Assembly (NCBI GenBank): GCA_041653515.1
Contig: JBAZFG010000004.1
Span: 6,568-70,567, forward strand
Direction of reading: 5' to 3'
Length of the DNA stretch: 64,000 nt
From: Candidatus Nanoarchaeia archaeon
GTDB lineage: Archaea; Nanobdellota; Nanobdellia; WJKC01
A program made the translations under genes and the position numbers. Under the pieces are notes generated by a model. That model saw only the letters and a list, made by a program, of their open reading frames with translations, ran no database searches and was not told where the DNA came from. Position 1 is the stretch's first letter; every line of letters starts with the position of its first letter. Shown here one piece after another: positions 1,884 through 59,005 of the stretch.

Positions 1884-3899
1884 ATGGCGGAAATTGATGA
1901 CAGGATTGCTGCTCTTGCTAAAATGTTTAATAACACTACTGATGAAAATGAAAAAGCAGGCATTCAAAAGCAAATTGAGACTCTAAAATTATTGAGGAAT
2001 AAACAATCACAGGAGAGCACTGAAAAAGAGAAAACCTCTAAAGAAAAATACGAAGAAGAATCACAGGAGAGCACTGAAAAAGAGAAAACCTCTAAAGAAA
2101 AATACGAAGAAGAATATTATAAAAAGAAACTTGAAACTGAAAGTGCTGCTCAAAAAGCACAAAGTTCCTCTAAGACATTATTCAAACAGGGCTTGTCTTC
2201 TGGTTGGTTATTATTATTTATCGTTATGGCTGTTATTGGCTTCTTTTTAGTAATATTTAGCACATGGCTGGTTGGATTGCCATTAATCATTGCTGCAGGC
2301 GTGATAGCTTACAATAGAGGTAACTTAATGATACCAAGATTAACAGCAATACTAATCGCAATGTCATTCAAGTGGATGCCAATCATACCCCAATATGATT
2401 TAATCAGCGTTTTTGGCGTGACAATCGGTTTCATGGCAATAGTATTATTAATGCCTGAAGCCAAAGAGGGTAATAGTAAAAGCGGAGGGGTCTTTAAAGC
2501 AGGACCTGCTTTGTGGTGGGGTATTCTTGGTGTTATCATAACAGTTGGTTGGTCTATATTCATTTTTGCTGGAGTAACAAGCGGCACTACTATTGCGGCT
2601 GTCGCTGCTATTACTGGCGCAATGGTTGCGGGCAGTATTATCTGGAAGCAACCAATTAGTTCTGGTTGGAAAGGAATCTTAACACTAGCTTGTTTCTCGC
2701 CATTAATATTCCTCGGAGTTCAATACTTATTCATTGCAGGCGGCACAGCTCTTGGCGGCATCTTTGATGAAGTACAGCACTTACTAGGCCAAGGCATTGG
2801 TAGCACAGGCACATCACTTGACTGGTTATTAAACCCAACGCTGGCAGTGCAAGCTCAACTAAAACCACCAAGCACTGCAGCAACAACTACTAGTGGCACA
2901 GTCTCAAGCGTTAAATTAACTGTTACAGGGGATACCCTGCCAAGCACTGGTTGTTATGATTCCAGCCCATTCCAAATAATTGGTCGCATCAAGAATACAG
3001 GCACAGAGCATATCAGCTCGCTTGATGTTATAATGGAGCCTGACTGGTCTGGCGCGTCATTAACAAGTCAGTGCCGACAGATTAATTTGCCAACTGATTG
3101 CTCAACAACTATCACTTCAATCCCAACCGGTGTCACCTCAACCGTTGATTGCACAATTGAAAGCGTGCCGTCAAGTGATATTATAGGCGCGACAGCTACT
3201 CACACTTGTTATGTTGATATCACTGCAACAACAGGTTATCATAGCACTGCCCGACTGCCAATCCAATTCATTGAGTATGAGTATGGTCGCAGTAAGTTTG
3301 AGCAACACCAATTAACTCAACGAATCACGCCAAGCACGACTGGACCCGGCCCAGTTGAATTAAGCCTTGGTGGTTTTGAGCAACCAGTGCTTAATTATGT
3401 TAGCACAGGAAACGCGTCACCGCAGAAACTAACAATGATAACTACTATTAGTAATGACGGTACAGGTGATGTTAATAATTATGTTAGCGCTTACTTGTAC
3501 ATTCCTAATGTATTATTAGATGAAGGTCAATGCTCAGGCGCAGGCAATGGTTGGACTTGTATTAGTGAATTAAATTGTGATTCATTAAGCGATGAAGCTA
3601 AGACTAATTGCTTGAATTTCCTTACTTACAAGAATAATGGGTTAATCGCGGGTTATACTCAATTTGATTATGATTACGCTGACGAGTTATTAAATAATGA
3701 TTTCTCAATCTGCTTTTACAACAATGAGATTAATATTGATAATATTGAGACTAGCAAGTGCGTGTTAAAAGTTGGTGATGTAATGGATGGTGATAGTACT
3801 GCACTTAGGAAAACAATGCTAATAAGAGGCGATGTTCTTTACTCTTACAAAGTGACTGGTGAAGCCAGCTTCCAAGTCAAGGATTGTGATGTATCATGA
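1884..3899 (+). CDS. Polytopic membrane protein with N-terminal coiled/repeat region and C-terminal Thr/Ser/Cys-rich extracellular domain (CARDB-like NTGT motif)
   Basis: 671 aa. Tandem 18-aa repeat SQESTEKEKTSKEKYEEE x2. About 6-8 hydrophobic helices between aa 105-290. Downstream region contains IGRIKNTGTEHISSLDV, typical of DUF11/CARDB beta-sandwich domains. Stop overlaps the next start (ATGA). Confidence 0.6.
   Translation: MAEIDDRIAALAKMFNNTTDENEKAGIQKQIETLKLLRNKQSQESTEKEKTSKEKYEEESQESTEKEKTSKEKYEEEYYKKKLETESAAQKAQSSSKTLFKQGLSSGWLLLFIVMAVIGFFLVIFSTWLVGLPLIIAAGVIAYNRGNLMIPRLTAILIAMSFKWMPIIPQYDLISVFGVTIGFMAIVLLMPEAKEGNSKSGGVFKAGPALWWGILGVIITVGWSIFIFAGVTSGTTIAAVAAITGAMVAGSIIWKQPISSGWKGILTLACFSPLIFLGVQYLFIAGGTALGGIFDEVQHLLGQGIGSTGTSLDWLLNPTLAVQAQLKPPSTAATTTSGTVSSVKLTVTGDTLPSTGCYDSSPFQIIGRIKNTGTEHISSLDVIMEPDWSGASLTSQCRQINLPTDCSTTITSIPTGVTSTVDCTIESVPSSDIIGATATHTCYVDITATTGYHSTARLPIQFIEYEYGRSKFEQHQLTQRITPSTTGPGPVELSLGGFEQPVLNYVSTGNASPQKLTMITTISNDGTGDVNNYVSAYLYIPNVLLDEGQCSGAGNGWTCISELNCDSLSDEAKTNCLNFLTYKNNGLIAGYTQFDYDYADELLNNDFSICFYNNEINIDNIETSKCVLKVGDVMDGDSTALRKTMLIRGDVLYSYKVTGEASFQVKDCDVS
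2007..2114 (+). repeat. Perfect 54-bp tandem duplication (2 copies) inside the CDS, encoding an 18-aa repeat
   Basis: tcacaggagagcactgaaaaagagaaaacctctaaagaaaaatacgaagaagaa at 2007-2060 and again at 2061-2114. Confidence 0.9.
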
Positions 3900-15831: not shown

Positions 15832-15920
15832 TCAAAGAAAATGATTAGAAAAGAATATAAACTAATTAACAATAGTTAATTAATTATGATTTTACCACAA
15901 GAACTAGAAGTCTTCCCGAA

Positions 15921-15971
15921 CCGCAGGGGGGACACCCCCCTTCAGTTCATGGCATCTCCTGATTCCCCCCG
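15921..15971 (+). repeat. 51-bp GC-rich palindromic core element, copy 1 (CCGCAGGGGGGACACCCCCCTTCAGTTCATGGCATCTCCTGATTCCCCCCG)
   Basis: Identical to copies at 16022-16072 and 57921-57971. GGGGGG-ACA-CCCCCC hairpin plus a second CCCCCC tract. Confidence 0.9.
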
Positions 15972-16021
15972 AAAACGAGGCGACCAATGATTCTTCCACA
16001 AGAACTAGAAGTCTTCCCGAA

Positions 16022-16072
16022 CCGCAGGGGGGACACCCCCCTTCAGTTCATGGCATCTCCTGATTCCCCCCG
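16022..16072 (+). repeat. 51-bp GC-rich palindromic core element, copy 2
   Basis: Identical to 15921-15971. Confidence 0.9.
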
Positions 16073-16087
16073 AAAACGAGGCGACCA

Positions 16088-16441
16088 ATGATTCTTCCAC
16101 AAGAACTAGAAGTCTTCTATGTCATCCCCGCAATCAGGCGGGAACTAGCCCTATCCCTTAGCAAAAAAGGCTTTAAACAAAAAAAGATTGCCCAGATTTT
16201 CGGGGTCACTGAAGCCTGCATCAGCAATTACTTCAAATCAAAAAGAGCTAACGAAGTCAAATTCAACGTTAAAATAATCAAATTAATCAATGATTGTGCT
16301 GAAAAACTATCAAAAGGACAAACTTGTTTCATTAACGTTGTCCAAAAAGTTTGCAAAGAATTCAAGAATAGCGAGTGTTTATGCGCTCTTCACGAAAAAC
16401 TTGACGAGCACGTCTGTAAATGCAGGGGGTGCTTAGAATGA
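16088..16441 (+). CDS. HTH transcriptional regulator with C-terminal Cys cluster, upstream of iscSU (possible Fe-S responsive regulator)
   Basis: HTH-like KKIAQIFGVTEACISNYF. C-terminal CLCALHEKLDEHVCKCRGC. Stop overlaps the iscS ATG (ATGA). GAGG RBS 8 nt upstream of the ATG. Confidence 0.45.
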   Translation: MILPQELEVFYVIPAIRRELALSLSKKGFKQKKIAQIFGVTEACISNYFKSKRANEVKFNVKIIKLINDCAEKLSKGQTCFINVVQKVCKEFKNSECLCALHEKLDEHVCKCRGCLE

Positions 16442-17955: not shown

Positions 17956-18564
17956 ATGAAAGAATCAATTTATGATAGACGATATCAAGATTTCAGCAAA
18001 GTAATGATTAAAAACCTATTTGAACTAGATTCAATGCTTAAAGAAACTGGAATCAATTATTTTATTGCTGAAGACACTGCAGTCAGGGCTTATGTTATAA
18101 CTTTAAAGAATAAAAAAATAATTAAGACAAAACCAGACATCTTTAAATTAAAAATTAAAGATGATAATGAAAAAATCTCAAATCTTAAAGACTTAATCAC
18201 TGAATCAAAAAATTTTGAGAATGATCGTTTCAGACCAACTTATCAAATCATATCAAAGCAGTGTGGAATATTTGATTTTAGTGTTGAATTTAATGATATT
18301 GAATTTACTCATAAACAATTATTAACAAACGAGTTAGCAAGCCTACCTGCTCAAAACCCATCAACACTTACCGCATACTTAATTGATAACTTAAATTATG
18401 ATGACCGTGAATTAATGAATATTTATCGAATGTTCACACTCTTTAATAACAAACAATTAAAACCTAATAAAGGATTATTCAACGAACGCATTAAAGAGTA
18501 TAATTGTGAAGAAACGTATAACAAAGTAAAGAACTTATTAAAAATTGATAATCCTTTCAGCTAA
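17956..18564 (+). CDS. Hypothetical protein
   Basis: 202-aa ORF, Lys/Asn-rich, no recognisable motif. Confidence 0.4.
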   Translation: MKESIYDRRYQDFSKVMIKNLFELDSMLKETGINYFIAEDTAVRAYVITLKNKKIIKTKPDIFKLKIKDDNEKISNLKDLITESKNFENDRFRPTYQIISKQCGIFDFSVEFNDIEFTHKQLLTNELASLPAQNPSTLTAYLIDNLNYDDRELMNIYRMFTLFNNKQLKPNKGLFNERIKEYNCEETYNKVKNLLKIDNPFS

Positions 18565-18602
18565 AAGGATATAAATAATCCAATGATTATTAATTAATCA
18601 TA

Positions 18603-19550
18603 ATGGGTAAAACTCAGTTTGTCAGAGTTGATAAAGACTCTCTTAAAAAGATTGCCCAGTTCCAAAAAGAGTTAAATCAAAATAGTGTTATTATTGGCAG
18701 TTACTCACTTGGTATTCACGTCCTAAAAAATAAGAATAATATTAATGAAAAATTTGAGTTTGGCAAAGAAGAAAGTTATGAAACATTAGAAAAGTTAAGC
18801 GATTTAATTGGAAACATCTTAAACGAAATCAACAGAAGCAAAGGCAAGCTTACTAAGAATATTAAAAACTCAATTAATGATATTAATGAAAAATTACCTG
18901 CTAATTGGCAGTCTAAAGACCTTAATAAAAATTCATTATCACTAATAAAAAACGAATTAGATGAATTAAAGAGCGACCTCAAGGATTATAATAAAAACCT
19001 TAAGACTTTAAAAAACTCAAAAGAAGGTGATAAAATCAAGGATTATATTCTTGATAAACTATCTGACATTGACCTCATTGTAGAAAAACCAACAGACGCT
19101 GCTAAAAAAGTTAAAGAACATATCTGGCACAAAGAAGGCGCTTTATTACACCTTAATTATTACGGCATGCCAGTTGGGTTCTTACTAACAAGCGATGAAT
19201 TCACTAGAATTGAACTAGATAATTATGTTGAATATGAATTAAAAGAATTTGGCATTAATTCAAATGGTCGCATTCGCGTCACCACACCAGAAGGTTTTAT
19301 TGGTTCAAAACTATTCATTAACACCCTTGAATTAAAGGATTATCTTAACATTGGTGTTGCGCTTAGATTAATTGCTAACAAGAAAATACCCTTTAACAAA
19401 GAATTGTTCATAAAATTAATTAAGAACTCAAGAGGGGCGAGCAGCCCAAAAAGAGCTTATAGGATTTATTTAAGGATACTAAAAATTTTTAATATAAACA
19501 AAGACCCACTTGACTTTAAAGCGGTTATGAAATCATTAGGCATTAAGTAA
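18603..19550 (+). CDS. Hypothetical coiled-coil protein
   Basis: 315-aa ORF with long K/E/N-rich helical segments. Confidence 0.4.
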   Translation: MGKTQFVRVDKDSLKKIAQFQKELNQNSVIIGSYSLGIHVLKNKNNINEKFEFGKEESYETLEKLSDLIGNILNEINRSKGKLTKNIKNSINDINEKLPANWQSKDLNKNSLSLIKNELDELKSDLKDYNKNLKTLKNSKEGDKIKDYILDKLSDIDLIVEKPTDAAKKVKEHIWHKEGALLHLNYYGMPVGFLLTSDEFTRIELDNYVEYELKEFGINSNGRIRVTTPEGFIGSKLFINTLELKDYLNIGVALRLIANKKIPFNKELFIKLIKNSRGASSPKRAYRIYLRILKIFNINKDPLDFKAVMKSLGIK

Positions 19551-19587
19551 AATATATAAAAAGAATTCATGACTCAAGCTTACTAAT

Positions 19588-19611
19588 ATGAAGATACTCG
19601 CTACAGCAGAC
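19588..19611 (+). other. Ghost gene start: a diverged copy of the first 8 codons (MKILATAD) of the downstream metallophosphoesterase
   Basis: ATGAAGATACTCGCTACAGCAGAC versus live ATGAAAATATTAGCGACTGCGGAC. All five differences are synonymous. Followed by hairpin CAACAA-CAAAG-TTGTTG. Confidence 0.7.
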
Positions 19612-19661
19612 ACTCAACAACAAAGTTGTTGGGTCCCGCAGTCACATGAAGGTGGAATAGC

Positions 19662-20264
19662 ATGAAAATATTAGCGACTGCGGACATACACGGGGACAAA
19701 AAACTAGTTGACCGCTTAATTAAGAATAGTAAGGACGCTGACGTAATTGTTGTGGCCGGTGACCTGACTTGGGCTGAAAATGATTTGCGAGGGATTATTG
19801 GGCCACTAAAAAAGCAAGGCAAACCAATTATTATGATACCAGGCAATCACGAAACACTAGCTTCAGTTGATTTCTTAGAGAACTTGTATAAGCCGGGTGT
19901 TTACAACTTGCACGCGCGCGGCATTAAAATCGGTGACACTTGTTTTGTTGCTTGCGGTTCAGGTAACATTGGTTTATTCCAACTAAGCGATGATGAAGTC
20001 ACTGACGCTTTAGAGAAAGCAATTAAAGAAGTAAAGGGTTGCACTAAAACAGTGCTAGTCACTCACACGCCGCCATACCAAACATTACTGGATAACCTTG
20101 GCTGGACTAATGCAGGGAGCAAAGCGGTCAGAAAATTCATTGAGAAGCACAAACCAGACTTATGCTTGTGCGGCCACATCCACGAGACCGCAGGTTTAAT
20201 GGAGAAAATAGGCAAGACACTAGTGGTAAACGTTGGGTTTAGCGATAAGATAATTGAGATATGA
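19662..20264 (+). CDS. Calcineurin-like metallophosphoesterase
   Basis: ADIHGD, VVAGDLT, GNHE and HTPP motifs. Confidence 0.7.
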   Translation: MKILATADIHGDKKLVDRLIKNSKDADVIVVAGDLTWAENDLRGIIGPLKKQGKPIIMIPGNHETLASVDFLENLYKPGVYNLHARGIKIGDTCFVACGSGNIGLFQLSDDEVTDALEKAIKEVKGCTKTVLVTHTPPYQTLLDNLGWTNAGSKAVRKFIEKHKPDLCLCGHIHETAGLMEKIGKTLVVNVGFSDKIIEI

Positions 20265-20364
20265 TTAACGCCCCTAACCTCAAAAGGGGGAGGTTAGGTC
20301 CAAGGAGGGAGAACGCCTCCTGGACGTAAACGTTGGTTTTAGTGATAAAATAATTGAGATTTAA
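20265..20364 (+). repeat. 61-bp GC-rich double-hairpin insert followed by a ghost copy of the last 12 codons plus stop of the metallophosphoesterase
   Basis: Insert 20265-20325 carries CCCCTAACCTC-AAAA-GGGGGAGGTTAGG and CCAAGGAGG-gagaacg-CCTCCTGG hairpins. Ghost GTAAACGTTGGTTTTAGTGATAAAATAATTGAGATTTAA (20326-20364) versus live GTAAACGTTGGGTTTAGCGATAAGATAATTGAGATATGA. Both encode VNVGFSDKIIEI*. Confidence 0.8.
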
Positions 20365-28043: not shown

Positions 28044-28157
28044 GCTTCGGTAGCTCAGAGGTAGTAGCGCTGCTCCGGTACGCTCACTTCGTTTATGTAA
28101 TAACGAGAGTTGAGCCTAGAAAGGCAGAGGTCGTGGGTCCAATTCCCATCCGAAGCT
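28044..28157 (+). tRNA. tRNA with 41-nt canonical 37/38 intron. Anticodon probably GGT (Thr).
   Basis: Acceptor GCTTCGG/CCGAAGC. D-arm GCTC..TAGC. Anticodon stem CTGCT/GGCAG (28070-74 / 28123-27). Loop CCGGTA|A, exon1 ends at 28080, intron 28081-28121. T-arm GTGGG-TCCAATT-CCCAT. Discriminator T28157. C33 is unusual, so anticodon identity is tentative. Confidence 0.65.
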
Positions 28158-31254: not shown

Positions 31255-32685
31255 ATGCGAAAAACAATCCTATTAATAGCTTTTATTCTAATGGCTGGGG
31301 TAACAAGCGCGGTTAGTTATGAAGTCACTGGGGTTAAAACAAGAGTATACCCTGAGGAGAGTCTTATTTACAGGATAAACATAATTAACAATGACTCGGT
31401 TAGCAAAGAGGTTTACATTAACAAGTATATGGTGGAGAACACTTTTGGTATGGCTAGCAGTGTTAGGCCGTCAATTAACCTTGTTTTATCACCTAATAGT
31501 TCAACAATCATTAATGTCACAATTCCAGTTAGTAATAGTGTTACTAAAGGGACTTACAGCACGCCATTATTATTCTCTTACGGCAATACCACCACGGACA
31601 GGGTTTATCTTGAATCAGTTATTCTTAGTAAGGTATTAGAACCAATTGAATTGCAAAACATTACGGTCATTAACCCTGAGAGCATTATTCCAGTTCATGA
31701 GTTTAACACAACAGTCACGCTCTTATGCAACATTGAGTCAGTTTACCCGTTAGTTAAAATAACTGTTAGTGATGATAATGGAATTATTTATGAGTCTAGC
31801 AGTGTTCAGGAATTAAAAGAAGGTATTAATGTGTTCAGGCGCAGCGTTAAATTACCTGACCGAACAATGCCTGGCACTTACACTTTATTAGTTGAAGCTA
31901 GTGTTTCGGGCAGGGTTATTACTCAGGGGGTGGGTGATTTAGTAATTAATCCCTACACTTACATTAATTATTCAGCTGGGGTTTATGAGGACTTGTTTGG
32001 TAAACGAGTTAATCGCACTGCGGATAACCTTGGTACTGAAATAATTAACACTAGTGTTAATTACACTACTTCGTTATTAGAGCCATTATTAATTAATCGA
32101 ATATTATTATTAATTAAGAAAGATGGTAATATTATTAGTTCAACTACACCTGTTATTAGTGATTACTTAATTAATGAATTAGTCACGCTTGAATCAGGTG
32201 AGTCAGCTGAATTAATCATTGAGTTTGGTTATGGCTTATTAATTGCAATCCCATTTGTTATTATCTTAGTGATTATTGGTTGGTTCTTCGTGACTAAGCG
32301 AGTAATTGTTAAGAAAGAAATAATTGAATGCCATAAGGATGGTAATGAATTAACCGTTAAGGTTGGAGTTAGTGTTAAGAACGTTTCACTTAGCAGTATT
32401 AATAATGTTAAAATTATTGAGGATTTGCCTGTTTACGCTAAGAAAGCAGGCGCTTTTGGCAGTATTAAGGGTGATATTGACCGCAAGAAAGGTATTATTA
32501 CTTTCCTGCCAGGCCGGCTTGACCCTAAAGAAGAAGTATTATTATCTTATAAATTCAAGACTGATATTGAGTTAGTTGGCAGGGTCTCGTTGCCGCCAGC
32601 CACAGTTAAGTTCAGGGTTGATGATAAAGTAATGATTGTTAAGAGTAATACTACTGGCATTGAATTAATTAAAGGCGGAGAGTAA
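31255..32685 (+). CDS. Secreted surface protein with C-terminal transmembrane anchor, hypothetical
   Basis: Signal peptide MRKTILLIAFILMAGVTSA. Beta-rich body with sequons. Hydrophobic segment LLIAIPFVIILVIIGWFFV near aa 320. Confidence 0.5.
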   Translation: MRKTILLIAFILMAGVTSAVSYEVTGVKTRVYPEESLIYRINIINNDSVSKEVYINKYMVENTFGMASSVRPSINLVLSPNSSTIINVTIPVSNSVTKGTYSTPLLFSYGNTTTDRVYLESVILSKVLEPIELQNITVINPESIIPVHEFNTTVTLLCNIESVYPLVKITVSDDNGIIYESSSVQELKEGINVFRRSVKLPDRTMPGTYTLLVEASVSGRVITQGVGDLVINPYTYINYSAGVYEDLFGKRVNRTADNLGTEIINTSVNYTTSLLEPLLINRILLLIKKDGNIISSTTPVISDYLINELVTLESGESAELIIEFGYGLLIAIPFVIILVIIGWFFVTKRVIVKKEIIECHKDGNELTVKVGVSVKNVSLSSINNVKIIEDLPVYAKKAGAFGSIKGDIDRKKGIITFLPGRLDPKEEVLLSYKFKTDIELVGRVSLPPATVKFRVDDKVMIVKSNTTGIELIKGGE

Positions 32686-32838
32686 AAACAATCTATTCTT
32701 TCATCTTTACATCCAATCTTAGCTCAATAAACCCTTTTCTCGCTTCGCTCCAAAAGTATTTCATCCCAAAATTAATGCGCTTAGTAATCTTTTTAAAACA
32801 ATCTATTCTTTCATCTTTGTATCCCGTCTTAGCTCAAT
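32685..32838 (+). repeat. 44-bp direct repeat x2 (110 bp apart) duplicating the tRNA-Tyr upstream region and the first ~16 nt of the tRNA
   Basis: aaaacaatctattctttcatctttacatccaatcttagctcaat (32685-32728) versus aaaacaatctattctttcatctttgtatcccgtcttagctcaat (32795-32838). Confidence 0.8.
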
Positions 32839-32958
32839 GGTAGAGCGCATGGCTGTAGACCAATACTGGATTCAAAATATTCTCGTGTTGGGGAAAAGCG
32901 TGCATTGAGCAGGCATTCAGATACCATGAGGTTCCCGGTTCAAATCCGGGAGACGGGA
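32823..32958 (+). tRNA. tRNA-Tyr (GTA) with 64-nt intron at 37/38
   Basis: C1:G72 acceptor CCCGTCT/AGACGGG, which is the archaeal Tyr identity. D-arm GCTC-AATGGTA-GAGC. Anticodon stem CATGG/CCATG. Anticodon GTA at 32855-57. Intron 32859-32922. T-arm CCCGG-TTCAAAT-CCGGG. Discriminator A32958. No encoded CCA. Confidence 0.8.
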
Positions 32959-33050
32959 CATTCTTATTCCTCCTGGTTCAAACTCTCGAGTGAAACGAGA
33001 GAGTGCCTGAGCGAGCGATAGCGAGTGCAGAGCATCCGGGAGACGGGACA
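32944..33050 (+). repeat. tRNA-Tyr 3'-end duplication flanking a structured insert (element A)
   Basis: 17-bp direct repeat ATCCGGGAGACGGGACA at 32944-32960 and 33034-33050. Insert 32961-33033 = CATTCTTATTCCT + CCTGGTTCAAAC (T-arm mimic) + hairpin CTCTCG-AGTGAAA-CGAGAG + GTGCCTGAGCGAGCGATAGCGAGTGCAGAGCA. Confidence 0.8.
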
Positions 33051-33059
33051 CTTTTTTTT

Positions 33060-33902
33060 TTAAATTTTAATGATTAATCCGTCGTATGATATTAGGTTTT
33101 TTTGTTTTGAGTGCTTTTTTAATCCACAGTTGATTAAAGCTTGTCTAATCGTGTTGTCCCATTCTTTGTGGTTTTTTGGCGTCTTATAAGGCAGTGGGTT
33201 ATTGTTTGTTATTTCCTCATCACTAAAGTGCGTAAAGTACACATTTTTAGGAGTCCATCTTATTAGGTAATTAATTGCTTGTTGAAAACTCATGTGACCT
33301 GGTTTATTATTAATTGGTTCGTTAAACCAATTGGTTTCAATTATTAGTGAGTCAATTGGTTTTTCAATAATTATTGATTCATTTTCAATGCTATTAAAAT
33401 CAGATGTGTAAATTAATCGCTTGTTATCTTCATCAATTATGTAGCCAGTTGAGCCTGGCGCAAATGAGCCATGATTAGTCTTAAAAGGGGTTATTAGTAA
33501 GTTGTCAAGAGTTAATGATTCATTATATTTTATCGCTTGTTCTTTTATTATTGAGTCAAATAAGTATTTTAGGTCTTTTTTGTTTTTTAAGTAATTAATT
33601 GCATCAATATGAGCATATAATGGTACTTGCCAGTTTTTGTAAGCGCGTCTATAAATATTTAATTCATCAAGACCACCAGTATGGTCTTGGTGTGTGTGAG
33701 TAATTAATAGTGCGTCAATATTTTTTATAGAGTGCTTGATTCTTTGTTCTTTAAAGTCAGGTCCGCAGTCAATAAGCACTTTTTTGTTTGATTCAATTAG
33801 TAATGAAGTTCTAGTGCGATAATCCCTGTAATCAGTTATATTATTGATTAATTCATTTGGAAGACCCCAAGCGTTACCAGTGCCTAGAAAAGTGATTTTC
33901 AT
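33060..33902 (-). CDS. Metallo-beta-lactamase fold hydrolase (RNase Z/ElaC-like possible)
   Basis: ITFLGTGNAWG, LIDCGPD and LLITHTHQDHTGGL (HxHxDH). Start moved to the internal Met (MKITFLGTGN) to avoid overlap with the 33907-34422 ORF. Start coordinate is uncertain by about 1-2 nt. Confidence 0.6.
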   Translation of the reverse strand: MKITFLGTGNAWGLPNELINNITDYRDYRTRTSLLIESNKKVLIDCGPDFKEQRIKHSIKNIDALLITHTHQDHTGGLDELNIYRRAYKNWQVPLYAHIDAINYLKNKKDLKYLFDSIIKEQAIKYNESLTLDNLLITPFKTNHGSFAPGSTGYIIDEDNKRLIYTSDFNSIENESIIIEKPIDSLIIETNWFNEPINNKPGHMSFQQAINYLIRWTPKNVYFTHFSDEEITNNNPLPYKTPKNHKEWDNTIRQALINCGLKKHSKQKNLISYDGLIIKI

Positions 33903-35973: not shown

Positions 35974-36070
35974 GTCAGGGAGATGGGACATTCTTATTTC
36001 TCCTGGTTCAAACCCACGAACGAAGTGAAGTGGGTGCCTGAACGAAGTGCAATGTGTCCAGTAGATAGGA
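35974..36070 (+). repeat. Degenerate third member (element B) of the tRNA-downstream structured element family. No tRNA present.
   Basis: GTCAGGGAGATGGGACA (a tRNA 3'-end-like remnant) + CATTCTTATTTCTCCTGGTTCAAAC + hairpin CCCAC-GAACGAAGTGAA-GTGGG + GTGCCTGAACGAAG. Covaries with element A. Confidence 0.7.
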
Positions 36071-36126
36071 TAATCTTTTTTTGAATAATCAGTTTTATAA
36101 GCCACATCACTACTCTAAATTTATTT

Positions 36127-39701: not shown

Positions 39702-39744
39702 ATAGTAATCCTTAAAAATAGGTCTTTGGTTTCATTTTACAATT

Positions 39745-39817
39745 GCTTCGGTAGTCTAGTGGTCTAGGATCTCGGACTGTCGATCCGGGGACCCGGGTTC
39801 AAATCCCGGCCGGAGCG
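39745..39817 (+). tRNA. tRNA-Asp (GTC), no intron
   Basis: Acceptor GCTTCGG/CCGGAGC. D-arm GTCT-AGTGGTCTA-GGAT. Anticodon stem TCGGA/TCCGG with loop CTGTCGA. T-arm CCGGG-TTCAAAT-CCCGG. Discriminator G. 73 nt. Confidence 0.85.
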
Positions 39818-39880
39818 GTTAAAACAAGCGACGGCAGGGGCCTGGAATTTATTCCAGTGCACCGGCCGAAGCGATTATCT

Positions 39881-40446: not shown

Positions 40447-40586
40447 GGGCCCGTAACTCAGTCTGGTTAGAGTACTTGGCTTTTACGTCGCTACGCTCCT
40501 CCGTCCTTACGGACGGACGCTCGCTTGCTAAAACAAGCGGTGACGAGGATACCAAGGAGTCGCGGGTTCGAATCCCGTCGGGCTCA
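40447..40586 (+). tRNA. tRNA-Lys (TTT) with 65-nt GC-rich intron at 37/38
   Basis: Acceptor GGGCCCG/CGGGCTC (G2:U71). D-arm ACTC..GAGT. Anticodon stem CTTGG/CCAAG. Loop CTTTTA|A. Intron 40486-40550. T-arm GCGGG-TTCGAAT-CCCGT. Discriminator A40586. Confidence 0.75.
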
Positions 40587-40747
40587 CATCCTCAAGGAGG
40601 GGGACTCCCCCTCCTTTAGAGATAATTCTCCCCCGATAAGTTGCGCCAAAGGCGCTAACCAATAAGTGGGTTCAAACCAACGGAGCTCTGCGAAGTTAGT
40701 GCCTGAACGAGCGAATAACAAAGTTCAGAGCATCCCGTCGGGCTCAC
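40572..40747 (+). repeat. tRNA-Lys 3'-end duplication flanking a 144-bp structured insert (element C)
   Basis: 16-bp direct repeat ATCCCGTCGGGCTCAC at 40572-40587 and 40732-40747. Insert includes the perfect 23-nt palindrome AAGGAGGGGGA-C-TCCCCCTCCTT (40594-40616), the T-arm mimic GTGGGTTCAAACC, and the conserved arm GTGCCTGAACGAGCGA...CAGAGCA. Confidence 0.8.
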
Positions 40748-50937: not shown

Positions 50938-51621
50938 ATGGTTAAGAAATCTTTATTGCTGAAAGCAAAGGAAATTGAGGATAAGAAGATTGTTAAGAAA
51001 GGCGAGGAAGTCTTGATTGATTTTAGTGATATTAAATTGTTTGATAAGTGGGATACTAATAATATTGAGGTTAAGGATGAGGGTTTGAAGCGTTATATTA
51101 ATCTTAAACCAGTAATCGTGCCTAAGACTCATGGTCGTAACCAAAAGACTCGTTTCTGGAAGAGTAAACAACATATTGTTGAGCGATTAATGAATCATGT
51201 GCCTGTTAGTGGTCATAAGGGCAAGAAGCATTATTGGAGTAGTGCTGAGCAGATTGGTGAGGGTCATACTATTTTTATGGTTATGATTAAGGCTTTAACT
51301 GAGATTGAGCGTAAGACTAAAATAAACCCTGTTGAAGTGATTGTTCGGGCGATTGAGAAGTCTTCACCGCGCGAGGAAGTCACAACAGTTCAGTATGGTG
51401 GTATTAAGCATCCTAAAGCAGTTGATTGCGCGCCTCAGCGAAGGGTTGATTTAGCGCTTCGTTGGATGAGTCAGGGCGCTTTCCAAGCGAGCAATAAGGG
51501 TAAACGTCGTATTTGGAGCACTTTATCTGATGAGATTATTGCTGCTTACAATAATGACCGTAAGAGTTTAGCTATTAGTAAGAAATTTGAGACTGAACGA
51601 CAAGCTGCTGCCAGCAGGTAA
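50938..51621 (+). CDS. rps7: Ribosomal protein S7 (uS7)
   Basis: 227-aa uS7/eS5-type sequence, in the canonical S12-S7 order. Confidence 0.9.
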   Translation: MVKKSLLLKAKEIEDKKIVKKGEEVLIDFSDIKLFDKWDTNNIEVKDEGLKRYINLKPVIVPKTHGRNQKTRFWKSKQHIVERLMNHVPVSGHKGKKHYWSSAEQIGEGHTIFMVMIKALTEIERKTKINPVEVIVRAIEKSSPREEVTTVQYGGIKHPKAVDCAPQRRVDLALRWMSQGAFQASNKGKRRIWSTLSDEIIAAYNNDRKSLAISKKFETERQAAASR

Positions 51622-51714
51622 AATTGATTTTTTCTAATAATTAATATTATTCTTTGGGGTGAAGCCCTTTCTTTTTAAGAAAGGGTTTCTTTGAGACTGA
51701 ACGACAAGCTGCTG
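51589..51714 (+). repeat. rps7 3'-end duplication: 22-nt direct repeat flanking a hairpin-bearing insert
   Basis: GAGACTGAACGACAAGCTGCTG at 51589-51610 (the live end, ..GCCAGCAGGTAA) and at 51693-51714 (ghost, ..GTATCAAGATAA = ETERQAAVSR*). Between them lies the hairpin GAAGCCCTTTCTT-TTTAAG-AAAGGGTTTCTT (51661-51692). Confidence 0.8.
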
Positions 51715-51736
51715 TATCAAGATAAAAAAAGATTAA

Positions 51737-56810: not shown

Positions 56811-57122
56811 ATGAGTTCGAAAGCCCGAATTAAATTAAGTAGCACTGAACCTGAAGCACTTAATAGTATTTGCGAGCAAATTAAGGGCATTACTAGTCGG
56901 ACTGGGGTTGACATTAAAGGACCAGTGCCATTGCCGACTAAGAAGATTCGAATGGCTACTAGGCGTGCTATTAGTGGTGAGGGCAGGGAAACTTATGAGA
57001 GTTGGGAGTTAAGGATTCACAAGCGATTAATTGATATCCCAATGGATGAGCGCGCGTTAAGGCTGATAATGAGGATTGCCATCCCTAAGAGCGTTAACAT
57101 GGAAATGGAAATTACTGAGTAA
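56811..57122 (+). CDS. rps10: Ribosomal protein S10 (uS10)
   Basis: ARIKLSSTEPEALNSICEQIKGITSRTGVDIKGPVPLPTKKIRMATRRA. Confidence 0.85.
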   Translation: MSSKARIKLSSTEPEALNSICEQIKGITSRTGVDIKGPVPLPTKKIRMATRRAISGEGRETYESWELRIHKRLIDIPMDERALRLIMRIAIPKSVNMEMEITE

Positions 57123-57250
57123 AATATTTAATATTTAGTTCTTTTGGTCAAGGTTTTCTTGCTAAGAAAAGCTTGTTGGAAATGGAAATTACTGAGTAAA
57201 ATATTTAGTTCTTTTGGTCAAGGTTTTCTTGCTAAGAAAAGCTTGTTGGA
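57101..57250 (+). repeat. Tandem duplication (~73-77 bp x2) of the rps10 3' end (last 6 codons + stop) and its 3'UTR hairpin
   Basis: ggaaatggaaattactgagtaaaatattta[atattta]gttcttttggtcaaggttttcttgctaagaaaagcttgttgga at 57101-57180, and again without the 7-bp extra at 57178-57250. Contains the stem GGTTTTCTT-GCT-AAGAAAAGC. Confidence 0.85.
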
Positions 57251-57262
57251 ATAAAATAATTC

Positions 57263-57898
57263 TTAACGGTGCTTATACCTGCCTCTTGATTCAACAGTTA
57301 GTAATCGTTTAATTACTTCCCTGCCAATAGGGTAATGTTTCTCGTAAGCTTTTTTGAATAACTTCCATGCTTTATGGTAAACATTATAGTGACGGCTCAT
57401 CAAAGCTTGTTTTAGAACATGCAAGTCAACTGCTCTTGACTCAACTTTATCACTAACCTCGCTTAAACCAAAATCAATAATGAATAATTCACCCTCTTTT
57501 AGCAGCATATTACTTGTTGTTAAGTCGCCGTGAATAATATTATTAACATGCAATAAAGCCACTAAACGACCAACTTCTTTCATAACATTAAGATTATTAT
57601 CAAGCACATCACGCAGGACTGGCGCGTCAATGAAATCCATCGTGATTGAGTAATCAGTCACGCCGCGAACTCTTGGCACATTAATTAGTTTACCAGCCCG
57701 CTCCAGTAACCGCGCCTCGGCCTTAGTTCGCTGGCGACGCAACATTAAATCAAGCTCTTTAATACGATAAGACTTTTTCACCCGCGCCTTAATTAAAGTT
57801 GAACCATCACGCCATAACTTACTCTCAGCCCCTTGCGCAATAATCTGGCGCTTATTGCTCTTCGCTTCGCTCAGCCGCTCTTTATTATTTAACGCCAC
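57263..57898 (-). CDS. bud32: Bud32/PRPK-like protein kinase (KEOPS)
   Basis: RQIIAQGAESKLW, IIHGDLTTSNMLL, IIDFGLS. GTG start at 57898 with GAGGTGA SD 7 nt upstream. Adjacent to kae1. Confidence 0.75.
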   Translation of the reverse strand: MALNNKERLSEAKSNKRQIIAQGAESKLWRDGSTLIKARVKKSYRIKELDLMLRRQRTKAEARLLERAGKLINVPRVRGVTDYSITMDFIDAPVLRDVLDNNLNVMKEVGRLVALLHVNNIIHGDLTTSNMLLKEGELFIIDFGLSEVSDKVESRAVDLHVLKQALMSRHYNVYHKAWKLFKKAYEKHYPIGREVIKRLLTVESRGRYKHR

Positions 57899-58069
57899 TT
57901 AACTATCACCTCATCCCAAACCGCAGGGGGGACACCCCCCTTCAGTTCATGGCATCTCCTGATTCCCCCCGCAAAAACTAACGCCACTTAACTATCACCT
58001 CATCCAAACTTTTCCGCTCCGCGCAAAACCTTGACCAAAAAACTAACGCCACTTAACTATCACCTCATC
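57891..58069. repeat. Three direct copies of a 25-32-bp segment (kae1 3' end + bud32 RBS/start) separated by two different short inserts
   Basis: AACGCCACTTAACTATCACCTCATC at 57891-57915, 57980-58004 and 58045-58069. Spacer 1 contains the 51-bp GC-rich core. Spacer 2 = CAAACTTTTCCGCTCCGCGCAAAACCTTGACCAAAAAACT. Confidence 0.9.
57921..57971 (+). repeat. 51-bp GC-rich palindromic core element, copy 3
   Basis: Identical to 15921-15971 and in the same orientation. Confidence 0.9.
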
Positions 58070-59005
58070 TGTTCTTTCACTTTGATTAATATCAATTCTT
58101 GACTTAACCCCTGACTCATACATCTTCAAGCCCAACAAACCAATCATCGCGCCATTATCAACACAATACTCCATCGGTGGCGCGCTAAACTTAGCGCCAC
58201 GCTCATCACACATAATCTTACACATCTCACGCAAGCGCTTATTAGATGCCACGCCGCCAGTTAGAATTAACTCATTCTTCTGACAATGAGCAAGGGCTCG
58301 CTCAGACACTTCAATCAGCATTGCAAAAACAGTCTCTTGTAACGAATAACACAAATCATCAAGCTTATGGTCTTTTAGTTTCTGACGCAAGTTAGTTAAG
58401 ATGCCAGTTAAGCTCACATCCATACCCTTAACAACGTAAGGCAGTGGAATGTACTTGCCCTTCAAGGCTTTCTGCTCGATTACTGGACCACCTGGAAAAG
58501 GAATGCCAGCGTAACGAGCAAAAGAGTCAATAAAATTACCCACACCCATATCAAGTGTTTCAGCAAACACACGATAACGACCACCCTGATAAGCAATAAC
58601 TTGAGTGTTAGCCCCACTAGTGTATAATACAACCGGGTCATTAAAGCCAGTAAGCTGTCGTGCGACCTCAACATGCGCAATACAATGATTAACACCTATT
58701 AGTGGGATTTTTAATGATTGAGCCAGCGTCTGAGCAGCTACTAAGCCAACGCGCAGTGAATGGCCAATGCCCGGTGCCCGGCTAAAAGCAATCAAGTTAA
58801 TATCACTGTAATCAATGCTTGCCTTACGCACAGCAGCATTGATGATGTCAGCAGCCCTAGAAGCAATGAAATCACTAGCTTCTCGAGGATGAATACCACC
58901 ACTAACAGGATGATAAGTCTCCTTAACATTAGATAAAATCTTACCATCAAATACTACTCCAACACCAAACGTATGAGCAGTTGACTCAATACCAAGACAA
59001 ATCAT
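58043..59005 (-). CDS. kae1: Kae1/TsaD N6-threonylcarbamoyladenosine synthase (KEOPS)
   Basis: MICLGIESTAHTFGVGVV, HCIAHVE and GGVASN. Start set at the internal Met. Last codons DEVIVKWR* lie within the repeated segment. Confidence 0.85.
   Translation of the reverse strand: MICLGIESTAHTFGVGVVFDGKILSNVKETYHPVSGGIHPREASDFIASRAADIINAAVRKASIDYSDINLIAFSRAPGIGHSLRVGLVAAQTLAQSLKIPLIGVNHCIAHVEVARQLTGFNDPVVLYTSGANTQVIAYQGGRYRVFAETLDMGVGNFIDSFARYAGIPFPGGPVIEQKALKGKYIPLPYVVKGMDVSLTGILTNLRQKLKDHKLDDLCYSLQETVFAMLIEVSERALAHCQKNELILTGGVASNKRLREMCKIMCDERGAKFSAPPMEYCVDNGAMIGLLGLKMYESGVKSRIDINQSERTDEVIVKWR

Follow-up and report, generated by a model that had tools for sequence, protein, structure and literature searches.

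A metallophosphoesterase (MPE) gene in a 64-kb stretch of a Candidatus Nanoarchaeia metagenome-assembled genome (MAG; contig JBAZFG010000004.1, positions 6,568 to 70,567, henceforth referred to as the window) is flanked by displaced copies of its own two ends. The first 8 codons recur upstream of the live gene and the last 12 codons recur downstream, each of these ghost copies being separated from the gene by a short hairpin-bearing spacer. The structure is best explained, with a probability that we place at roughly 0.6, by two independent hairpin insertions that duplicated the gene boundaries as part of a genome-wide process, with the upstream side forming a coupled leader array similar to MIRUs (mycobacterial interspersed repetitive units) and with units exchanged by recombination. 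According to this explanation MPE would be the resident gene, and each boundary would have separately gained a hairpin-forming insertion together with a duplicated boundary segment. The outcome would be the promoter, the original 8 codons, a spacer, the 8 codons again and the gene, followed at the other end by the last 12 codons, a spacer and the original last 12. In a genome that is 93% coding, such insertions would survive only where the duplicated target spans a start or a stop, since one intact gene copy is then left, and they would for that reason be seen as ghost termini. The process is a variant of two phenomena already known, namely repeats resembling MIRUs or MITEs (miniature inverted-repeat transposable elements) and displaced gene ends. 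A literature search returned no description of boundary-duplicating hairpin insertions in DPANN archaea.

Ghost and native ends of the metallophosphoesterase gene

The ghost and live copies encode identical peptides, MKILATAD on the N side and VNVGFSDKIIEI followed by a stop on the C side, and six-frame translation of the window placed each peptide at its ghost and live sites only. All 11 nucleotide differences between the copies are synonymous, 6 of them in 5 codons on the N side and 5 on the C side (4 codons and the stop). An earlier interpretation made from the letters alone (the sequence-only reading) had described synonymous-only copies with five changes on each side; the copies themselves were reproduced in an independent assembly, while the count stands for the C side, stop included, but not for the N side. 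Both spacers also fold as had been described, the upstream hairpin at −16.9 kcal/mol (z −3.3) and the downstream double hairpin at −28 kcal/mol (z −3.1), and their GC contents of 48% and 57% compare with 36% for the window. The codons of ghost C are low in third-position GC (GC3), like the genome as a whole, and the live C end has GC-richer codons. No similarity was detected past the ghost edges on either side in any register, and the spacers resembled the 5' region and upstream DNA, on both strands, no more than shuffled sequences did. A decayed tandem gene duplicate, which the sequence-only reading had named as its counter-case, was ruled out by this lack of any extension.

The independent assembly (Logan L001, from SRR18595300) is identical over 941 nt, and the same architecture is present in diverged relatives from other metagenomes (L167, L082 and L083), which demonstrates that the structure is not an assembly artefact. 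The MPE protein has many 200-aa homologs in Nanoarchaeia and Woesearchaeota, and relatives also in other DPANN archaea.

Relatives were fetched as loci designated by L numbers, and every fetched locus was scanned for its own terminal peptides in the flanks and then inspected. The syntenic outgroups L162, L164, L166 and L172 (79–67% amino-acid identity), which share the gene order NifS-NifU ... MPE ... L7Ae-S28e-L24e-NDK, have a TATA box, ~25–35 nt, a single ATG and short intergenic gaps with no room for ghosts. A TATA-like element precedes a plain ATG at equal distance in L083, L082, L167, L162, L164 and L166. Ghost N of the window and its upstream DNA, including the TATA region, align with the native promoter and start of the outgroup genes, which identifies the ghosts as the original termini and supports the earlier suggestion that they are displaced resident ends. 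Judged from the TATA spacing, the native MPE gene is probably leaderless or nearly so.

The states of the two ends in the relatives are listed in Table 1, where codon versions of the first 8 codons are designated A, B and C, spacers carry Greek letters, and the asterisk marks the live gene. Ghost N is identical in L167 and 92% identical in L082. The N and C states vary independently among the relatives, with layers gained or lost on the N side alone, and a single event replacing the gene interior is thereby disfavored. Orthology between the window spacer and the spacers of L082 and L083 was considered and dropped, since alpha and beta coexist in L167 and are paralogous units.

Two of the relatives showed further peculiarities. 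In L167 (396–1000), the closest relative, the MPE frame is interrupted by a TAG at a codon that reads AAG in the window (…KFIE*HQPD…, the asterisk here being the stop), which could reflect a pseudogene, an error of sequencing or recoding of the stop; its ghost and spacer structures are otherwise intact. In L169, a short ORF beginning ATGAAGATTTTG... (MKILFFH, then a stop) with GAGGTG ahead of it lies ~105 nt before the MPE ATG, and may be a 4-codon ghost, its 12-nt match being too short to judge. The gene content of the NifU-to-MPE interval (17956–19550) differs in every relative compared (L162, L164, L166, L170 and L171), and the 5' end of MPE therefore borders a variable region. The window has unknown proteins of 202 aa and 315 aa there, encoded by unusually AT-rich genes (26–30% GC); elsewhere the interval holds a 506-aa or 345-aa protein, or nothing, and L170 and L171 carry orotidine monophosphate decarboxylase genes in opposite orientation between NifU and MPE.

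Table 1. Features of the MPE locus, other duplicated boundaries in the window, and end states of MPE in the window and its relatives.
Feature	Position	Strand	Description
TATA-like box, native promoter	19550–19563	+	AAATATATAAAAAG; ~25–38 nt 5' of ghost ATG
Ghost N	19588–19611	+	ATGAAGATACTCGCTACAGCAGAC; first 8 codons; codon version type A; start of leader ORF
Leader ORF	19588–19665	+	25 codons (MKILATADTQQQSCWVPQSHEGGIA, then stop); TGA overlaps live ATG (ATGA)
Upstream spacer, beta	19612–19661	+	50 nt; homologous to alpha and gamma of relatives; 100% identical in L167
Hairpin directly 3' of ghost N	19612–19634	+	ACTCAACAAC AAA GTTGTTGGGT; from fold
Predicted 8-bp stem	19636–19683	+	CCGCAGTC (19636–19643) with GACTGCGG (19676–19683, live codons 5–8); Shine-Dalgarno (SD) motif and live ATG in loop; minimum-free-energy fold
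SD-like AAGGTGG	19649–19655	+	6 nt 5' of live ATG; from sequence
Live MPE gene	19662–20264	+	200-aa ORF; Pfam PF00149 (Metallophos), 6.6e-20; calcineurin-like
Live C-terminal copy of duplicated segment	20226–20264	+	last 12 codons and TGA
Downstream spacer	20265–20325	+	61 nt; hairpins at 20273–20298 and 20299–20324; 93% identical in L167
Second hairpin of downstream spacer	20299–20324	+	CCAAGGAGG...CCTCCTGG, family C
Ghost C	20326–20364	+	last 12 native codons and TAA; then native intergenic region upstream of yhfC-like gene
Promoter duplication	295–397
Gene 16088 start	15886–16117		two tandem 101-nt units (first 10 codons MILPQELEVF and 71-nt GC-rich spacer)
tRNA-Tyr(GTA)	within 32685–33060		second 3'-end copy after spacer; also 44-nt duplication of promoter and 5' end
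tRNA-Asp	39744–39874		second 3'-end copy after spacer
tRNA-Lys(TTT)	40447–40745		second 3'-end copy after spacer; family-C hairpin at 40594
rpS7 end	51586–51727		C-terminal end duplicated after hairpin spacer; ghost Ser AGC to TCA, Ala to Val
rpS10 end	57100–57251		C-terminal end duplicated after hairpin spacers; third copy with internal deletion
Kae1-Bud32 junction	57890–58070	−	26–27-nt segment three times; family-A spacer (62 nt) and family-B spacer (38 nt)
Window			N: promoter-A-beta-C*; C: hairpin spacer and ghost
L167 (~90% identity)			N: promoter-B'-alpha'-A-beta-C*; C: as window
L083 (78%)			N: promoter-A-alpha-B*; C: 65-nt perfect end repeat including 26 nt of 3' untranslated region
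L082 (79%)			N: promoter-A-alpha-B-gamma-A'*; C: one ghost
L168 (86%)			N: 3 codons-delta-C* (different spacer, after codon 3); C: no ghost
L170, L171			N: no ghosts, promoter duplicated around another hairpin element; C: no ghost
L084			N: contig begins inside gene; C: no ghost

Recurrence of duplicated boundaries and spacer families

Further gene termini with adjacent ghosts, for which the sequence-only reading had proposed a search, were found. About a dozen additional cases of a duplicated boundary segment (12–65 nt) with a hairpin spacer (38–146 nt) are present in the window, including rpS7, rpS10, Kae1-Bud32 and tRNA genes (Table 1). Short-range direct repeats number 14 in the 64 kb of the window versus 0–3 per 20-kb outgroup locus. 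The duplications measure 12, 16, 17, 23, 24, 26–27, 30, 31, 38, 39, 44 and 65 nt, with no fixed length; those of the four most recent events are 26–31 nt. Empty sites are available in L162 for gene 16088 and in L173 for both the rpS10 end and Kae1-Bud32, the latter as a single overlapping junction.

Gene 16088 is a live 117-aa gene (16088–16441) upstream of NifS. Its leader ORFs are 34 codons each and end in ATGA, and one codon reads TTA in the first copy, as in the outgroup L162, and CTT in the later copies. At the Kae1-Bud32 junction the repeated segment contains the last 8 codons of Kae1, which at the same time hold the SD motif and GTG start of Bud32, and the TAG stop of Kae1 is recreated by the first G of each junction spacer. 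Promoter (TATA-region) duplications around another hairpin family (GGGC.CAGCCCCTCT...) were identified in the window and at L171 5900–6000, L082 1–70 and L170 5750–6000; this promoter hairpin family is thus common to the window and to relatives ~80% identical in MPE.

At tRNA-Tyr, tRNA-Asp and tRNA-Lys, spacers of 44–146 nt precede second 3'-end copies of 12–17 nt. The T-run terminator of tRNA-Tyr is present only after the second copy, and the 5' acceptor strand of tRNA-Asp pairs perfectly with the second 3' copy and forms a G.U pair with the first. Three of the four tRNA genes are interrupted by long introns (28044–28157, 32823–32958 and 40447–40586; gene lengths 114–140 nt); ARAGORN recovered one of the four, the intron-less tRNA-Asp, and Rfam recovered all four. 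The tRNA-Lys intron and the tRNA-Asp downstream spacer have the 11-nt motif TAAAACAAGCG in common. At 35975–36090, a solitary tRNA-Tyr-3'-like fragment (CAGGGAGATGGGACA), with no tRNA gene upstream, adjoins a family-D element whose hairpin is compensated; it may have been left by another insertion or be a copy of the target carried by the element.

The spacers fall into recurring families. Family A is identical over 53/53 nt at 15919, 16020 and 57919, is found in both orientations relative to genes, and has different flanks at its sites (ATGATTCTTCCACAAG... at gene 16088, TAACGCCACTTAAC... at 57917). Family B occurs at 57142, 57212 and 58025. Hairpin family C was observed on the C side of MPE in four lineages and after tRNA-Lys, and lies beside ghost C in both L082 and L083. 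Family D was located after tRNA-Tyr, after tRNA-Lys and at 35991, and family F is present at 323 in the window and in L171. Inspection for terminal inverted repeats showed no more than internal hairpins and, for family A, a weakly symmetrical GC(A)GGGGGG/CCCCCCGC pair.

Two sources for the spacers were considered and rejected. A viral or mobile-element source was set aside since families A, C and D had no match in the viral contigs of IMG/VR; a family-B 16-mer returned 113 IMG/VR matches, judged to be about chance for an AT-rich 16-mer in a collection of that size. A local fold-back origin (inverted codons 5–17 and upstream copy), hinted at by palindromes in L082 gamma and L167 alpha', did not exceed shuffled sequences, the best p being 0.04–0.08 before correction for 28 tests. 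Rfam returned tRNAs only, and the MPE locus had no match with the threshold relaxed to E ≤ 10.

Leader reading frames and probable exchange between lineages

On the N side, all nine leader ORFs opened by an old ATG, taken from the window (MPE and gene 16088), L167, L083, L082 and L168, end on a TGA that overlaps the following ATG (ATGA). They represent 5 lineages, 2 genes and about six spacers. Every unit has a period of 3n+2 nt, which is why the frame of the old ATG reads through the spacer to that TGA. Units are 56–101 nt long and occur in 1 to 3 copies, with two units in tandem at gene 16088 and one or two spacers (≤3 codon copies) at MPE among the relatives. The spacers carry an SD-like motif 6–9 nt before the next ATG, with GGTGA, GAGG or AGGTG at the matching place in L083, L082, L168 and gene 16088. 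The hairpin 3' of the ghost is paired in 80% of cells across 6 units, compared to ≤49% in slid controls, and shows two compensatory pairs. Pairing of the spacer with codons 5–8 is analogous in the folds of L083, L082 and L167, sometimes with the upstream copy; for the stem around the SD motif and ATG, complementarity alone was not significant (p = 0.08). Insertions are probably filtered by selection for this geometry.

This geometry predicts a translationally coupled leader of the MIRU kind on the N side. Transcription would still begin at the old leaderless ATG, and the 25-codon leader would be translated through the ghost codons and then the spacer to the TGA overlapping the real ATG, where reinitiation would follow, aided by the SD motif in the spacer. 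In Haloferax, experiments have established that termination is followed by reinitiation at ATGA overlaps (PMC6728339). On the C side, the gene would end normally, with the GC-rich hairpins and the ghost merely carried in the 3' region.

The sequence-only reading had argued that both versions of each terminus were once real coding ends, and the comparison across relatives bears this out. Pooled over sites and lineages, differing codons comprise 37 synonymous and 7 non-synonymous; neutral decay would be expected to give ~35% synonymous (p about 2e-11, with pairs not fully independent). This excess means that each of the two versions has a past as a real coding end. Non-synonymous changes are nonetheless present in ghost C of L167 (K to N and V to L; LNVGFSDNIIEI, then a stop) and in ghost N of L083 (T to I) and L082 (D to N), from which it follows that ghosts are unprotected as such, with neutral decay visible in ghost C of L167. 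Two of the five C-side differences (GGG and AGC) arose in the live copy of the window after its split from L167, a copy in which no changes other than synonymous ones survive.

Codon versions that are ghosts in some lineages are live in others. Type A is a ghost in the window, L167, L083 and L082 and is live in L082, and type B is live in L083 and a ghost in L082 and L167. Over a 110-nt tract that takes in ghost A, beta and about the first 10 codons, the window and L167 are 100% identical, while the adjoining gene body is 73–87% identical; by our own arithmetic, 110 identical positions at ~82% background would arise by chance with a probability of about 3e-10. The tract is most simply read as a recent recombination tract. 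Both the alternation of codon versions and the 110-nt block point to units exchanged by recombination, and such exchange, together with a past as live terminus, would account for the synonymous-only divergence. The units, each consisting of 8 codons and a spacer, would then form small arrays that are gained, lost and swapped through recombination between codon blocks, within and between lineages. The repeats of rpS7 and of gene 16088 combine an identity block beside the spacer with a terminal patch that is recoded, the pattern that would be expected from an insertion allele moved between diverged lineages with one crossover in the short repeat.

Several observations weigh against two boundary-duplicating insertions as the explanation. 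An enzyme was not seen, nor, by inspection, terminal inverted repeats, and the duplications have no fixed length; 'insertion with target duplication' is therefore used here as a description only. The MPE N-side spacers alpha, beta, gamma and delta were found at no other locus, and beta has no copy elsewhere in the 64-kb window; their mobility is shown only as exchange at MPE, dispersal within the window being seen for family A. Ghost A and live C differ in 25% of nucleotides, a distance equal to that between orthologs from different genera, and no identity block adjoins the spacer, so duplication in place would be insufficient for the N side of the window without allele exchange. The differences at rpS7 and gene 16088 are clustered in one to three terminal codons (TTA/CTT; AGC/TCA), like a patch from a foreign allele. 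MPE itself stands out in the window for its GC and GC3 (rank 66–67 of 68), its GC3 being almost the highest there. Part of the gene may be of foreign origin. Transcription start, leader translation and reinitiation are predictions from sequence.

Alternative explanations and known systems

Candidates for the initial insertion and duplication include a transposase or integrase with long staggered cuts, homology-facilitated illegitimate recombination with donor flanks (PMC5361080) and replication template switching. A bolder proposal, tentative and on balance unlikely, is an undescribed class of small hairpin elements in this DPANN lineage. Such elements would duplicate a target of ~26–31 nt (up to 65) by a staggered chemistry like that of Cas1 or casposases, persist only at gene, operon and tRNA boundaries, spread between diverged lineages with duplicated essential-gene ends serving as homology arms (in effect homing), and on the 5' side turn leaderless genes into leader-coupled ones.

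The sequence-only reading had favored one cassette-like swap of the gene interior, in which a single incoming segment (5' flank, diverged whole-gene allele and 3' flank) replaced the resident interior by illegitimate or homology-facilitated recombination and left the resident termini as ghosts. The termini do differ only synonymously and in 13–25% of nucleotides, like alleles of distant lineages; the inserted segment would be 714 nt, a multiple of 3; both structures are common to the window and L167; and homology-facilitated illegitimate recombination with sequential displacement of gene ends is known in bacteria (PMC5361080). The outlying GC and GC3 of the live gene and its GC-richer C end also fit this account, but the GC3 is equally elevated in the ghost-free relatives L170–L172, and not in the outgroups. 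Being common to ghost-free relatives, high GC3 is uninformative on a foreign interior, and composition was dropped as evidence for one. The swap is improbable on other grounds as well. The two ends are uncoupled, with L168 having an N-side ghost only and another spacer, L082 two N spacers and one C spacer, and L167 an extra N layer. One and the same junction, after codon 8, served in three different layers, the tract of recombination in common with L167 extends over the leader and ~31 nt of the gene only, and one-sided cases at other genes and tRNAs need no interior replacement.

The likeness to integration at attB sites, also raised by the sequence-only reading, was pursued as well. Prophages such as e14 or phage 21 in icd leave displaced gene ends at their integration sites, and the spacers could similarly be remnants or miniatures of site-specific integrative elements (attL-element-attR) that carried their own copy of the target end, as prophages do at icd and tRNA genes. 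As at such sites, direct repeats of the target end flank an insert, a functional end lies next to foreign DNA with the original end displaced, and the copies are mostly synonymous, each once a real coding end. Duplication of the tRNA 3' ends reaches exactly to the discriminator region, and the perfect pairing of the downstream tRNA-Asp copy, with G.U in the upstream one, is expected if the upstream copy came with the insert. The solitary tRNA-Tyr-3'-like fragment beside the family-D element (35975–36060) and the recoded terminal patches at rpS7 and gene 16088, where the repeats have an identity block beside the gene body, could be read in the same way. We nevertheless consider this account quite improbable. 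The interval between the repeats is only 50 and 61 nt at MPE and 38–146 nt elsewhere, with no element body, integrase or cargo. Identical family-A copies lie between unrelated duplicated targets, and one target holds two different spacers in tandem. Promoter-only duplications exist, the families A, C and D are absent from viral contigs, and both ends of one gene were hit here by separate events.

Action at the RNA level is highly improbable. The spacer and one repeat would be removed as a bulge-helix-bulge (BHB) intron, or skipped by ribosome bypass, with the ghost codons belonging to the coding sequence of the mature protein and kept by selection. A synonymous-only pattern would follow if both copies were translated as protein ends, the genome has intron-containing tRNAs, with the 11-nt motif common to the tRNA-Lys intron and the tRNA-Asp spacer, and the spacers stand out as GC-rich and structured against an AT-rich background. 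The upstream gap of 50 nt, with a hairpin at the take-off position, bears a superficial likeness to the bypass of T4 gene 60. A search for the BHB motif (two 3-nt bulges with a 4-bp helix between) scored 12/12 for the tRNA-Lys intron as control and 6–10/12 for the sites with recent identical repeats; 11/12 was reached only at the C side of MPE, via A.U and G.U pairs in an AT-rich repeat. The live copy has its own SD motif, ATG and stop and needs no processing, family A lies in both orientations relative to genes, the ghosts of relatives carry non-synonymous changes, and Rfam gave no match other than tRNAs. Programmed translational bypass was rejected on the same SD motif and ATG, and because ghost 1 of L082 ends in AAT versus GAT in the following copy.

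An assembly or strain-mixture artefact joining two alleles is scarcely credible: the source is a MAG, and synonymous alleles coexist in such samples, but the structure is identical in the independent assembly and present in diverged versions in at least four other metagenomes, the spacers are unique rather than allelic sequence, and the junctions share ≤3–4 nt.

Among known systems, the N side of the preferred explanation, boundary-duplicating insertion, is close to MIRUs, which a review describes as mobile repeats that insert at start codons and carry an internal ORF coupled to the gene at a −4 nt spacing, minimizing the effect on expression (PMC12548453). MIRUs are short (~40–100 nt), apparently mobile units at start codons or operon junctions, with a stop overlapping the downstream start by 4 nt and a variable tandem copy number; the units here, of 56–101 nt, likewise end their leader ORFs in ATGA and vary from 1 to 3 copies. 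The host is archaeal (Nanoarchaeia, a DPANN MAG) and there is no sequence relationship, so the likeness is one of function only and not of membership. In contrast to MIRUs, the leader here opens at what was probably a leaderless gene start and repeats that gene's initial 3–10 codons, stop codons, tRNA ends and promoters are also affected, and several unrelated spacer families are involved.

In the Rhs, contact-dependent inhibition (CDI) and type VI secretion system (T6SS) loci, C-terminal gene ends are pushed downstream into orphan arrays through homology-facilitated illegitimate recombination, and the arrays are passed between strains by homologous recombination (PMC5361080). Successive displacement of older ends and exchange of arrays are proposed here as well. 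The orphans of those loci, however, are different polymorphic toxin ends with immunity genes under diversifying selection, whereas ghost and live copies here encode the same peptide without cargo, and N-terminal arrays occur too.

MITEs and repetitive extragenic palindromic (REP) elements are also short, structured, multi-copy non-coding elements at gene boundaries, with target direct repeats and empty sites in relatives. The duplications here (12–65 nt) are variable and far longer than is usual for MITEs, and terminal inverted repeats were not recognized. Long variable target duplications are a feature of insertion sequences of the IS1634 group; to our knowledge, the hairpin elements here have no partner transposase. 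A further comparison is with the duplication of CRISPR repeats on spacer integration and with ectopic 'neo-CRISPR' arrays. The junction at 57890–58070 resembles these in its repeat-spacer-repeat-spacer-repeat order, with a 26–27-nt target duplicated twice in succession, and the recent duplications of 26–31 nt are repeat-sized. The spacers differ in their unequal length (38–146 nt) and in recurring as hairpin families, where CRISPR spacers are captured fragments that are each unique. Neither cas genes nor a CRISPR leader turned up in the window, where no systematic search for them was made.

If the general process of boundary-duplicating insertion is real, a compact AT-rich archaeal genome would tolerate frequent small insertions, as the duplicated boundary leaves one intact gene copy, and insertions at the 5' side would give a leaderless start a leader ORF with translational coupling. 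Mycobacterial MIRUs would thereby have a counterpart in archaea. At essential genes (ribosomal proteins, Kae1-Bud32 and tRNAs), the insertions would also naturally give rise to upstream ORFs, 3' hairpins and markers that vary in copy number. That lineages exchange these units suggests homologous recombination to be active in uncultivated DPANN populations. In practice, gene callers mis-start such genes, P0002 and P0003 having been called with N-terminal extensions, and tRNA detection is affected as well (ARAGORN versus Rfam, above).

One further repeat in the window is unrelated to the boundary duplications. It is a perfect 54-nt tandem repeat (2.1 copies) at 2002–2115, which is in-frame coding sequence inside a 671-aa ORF (1884–3899).

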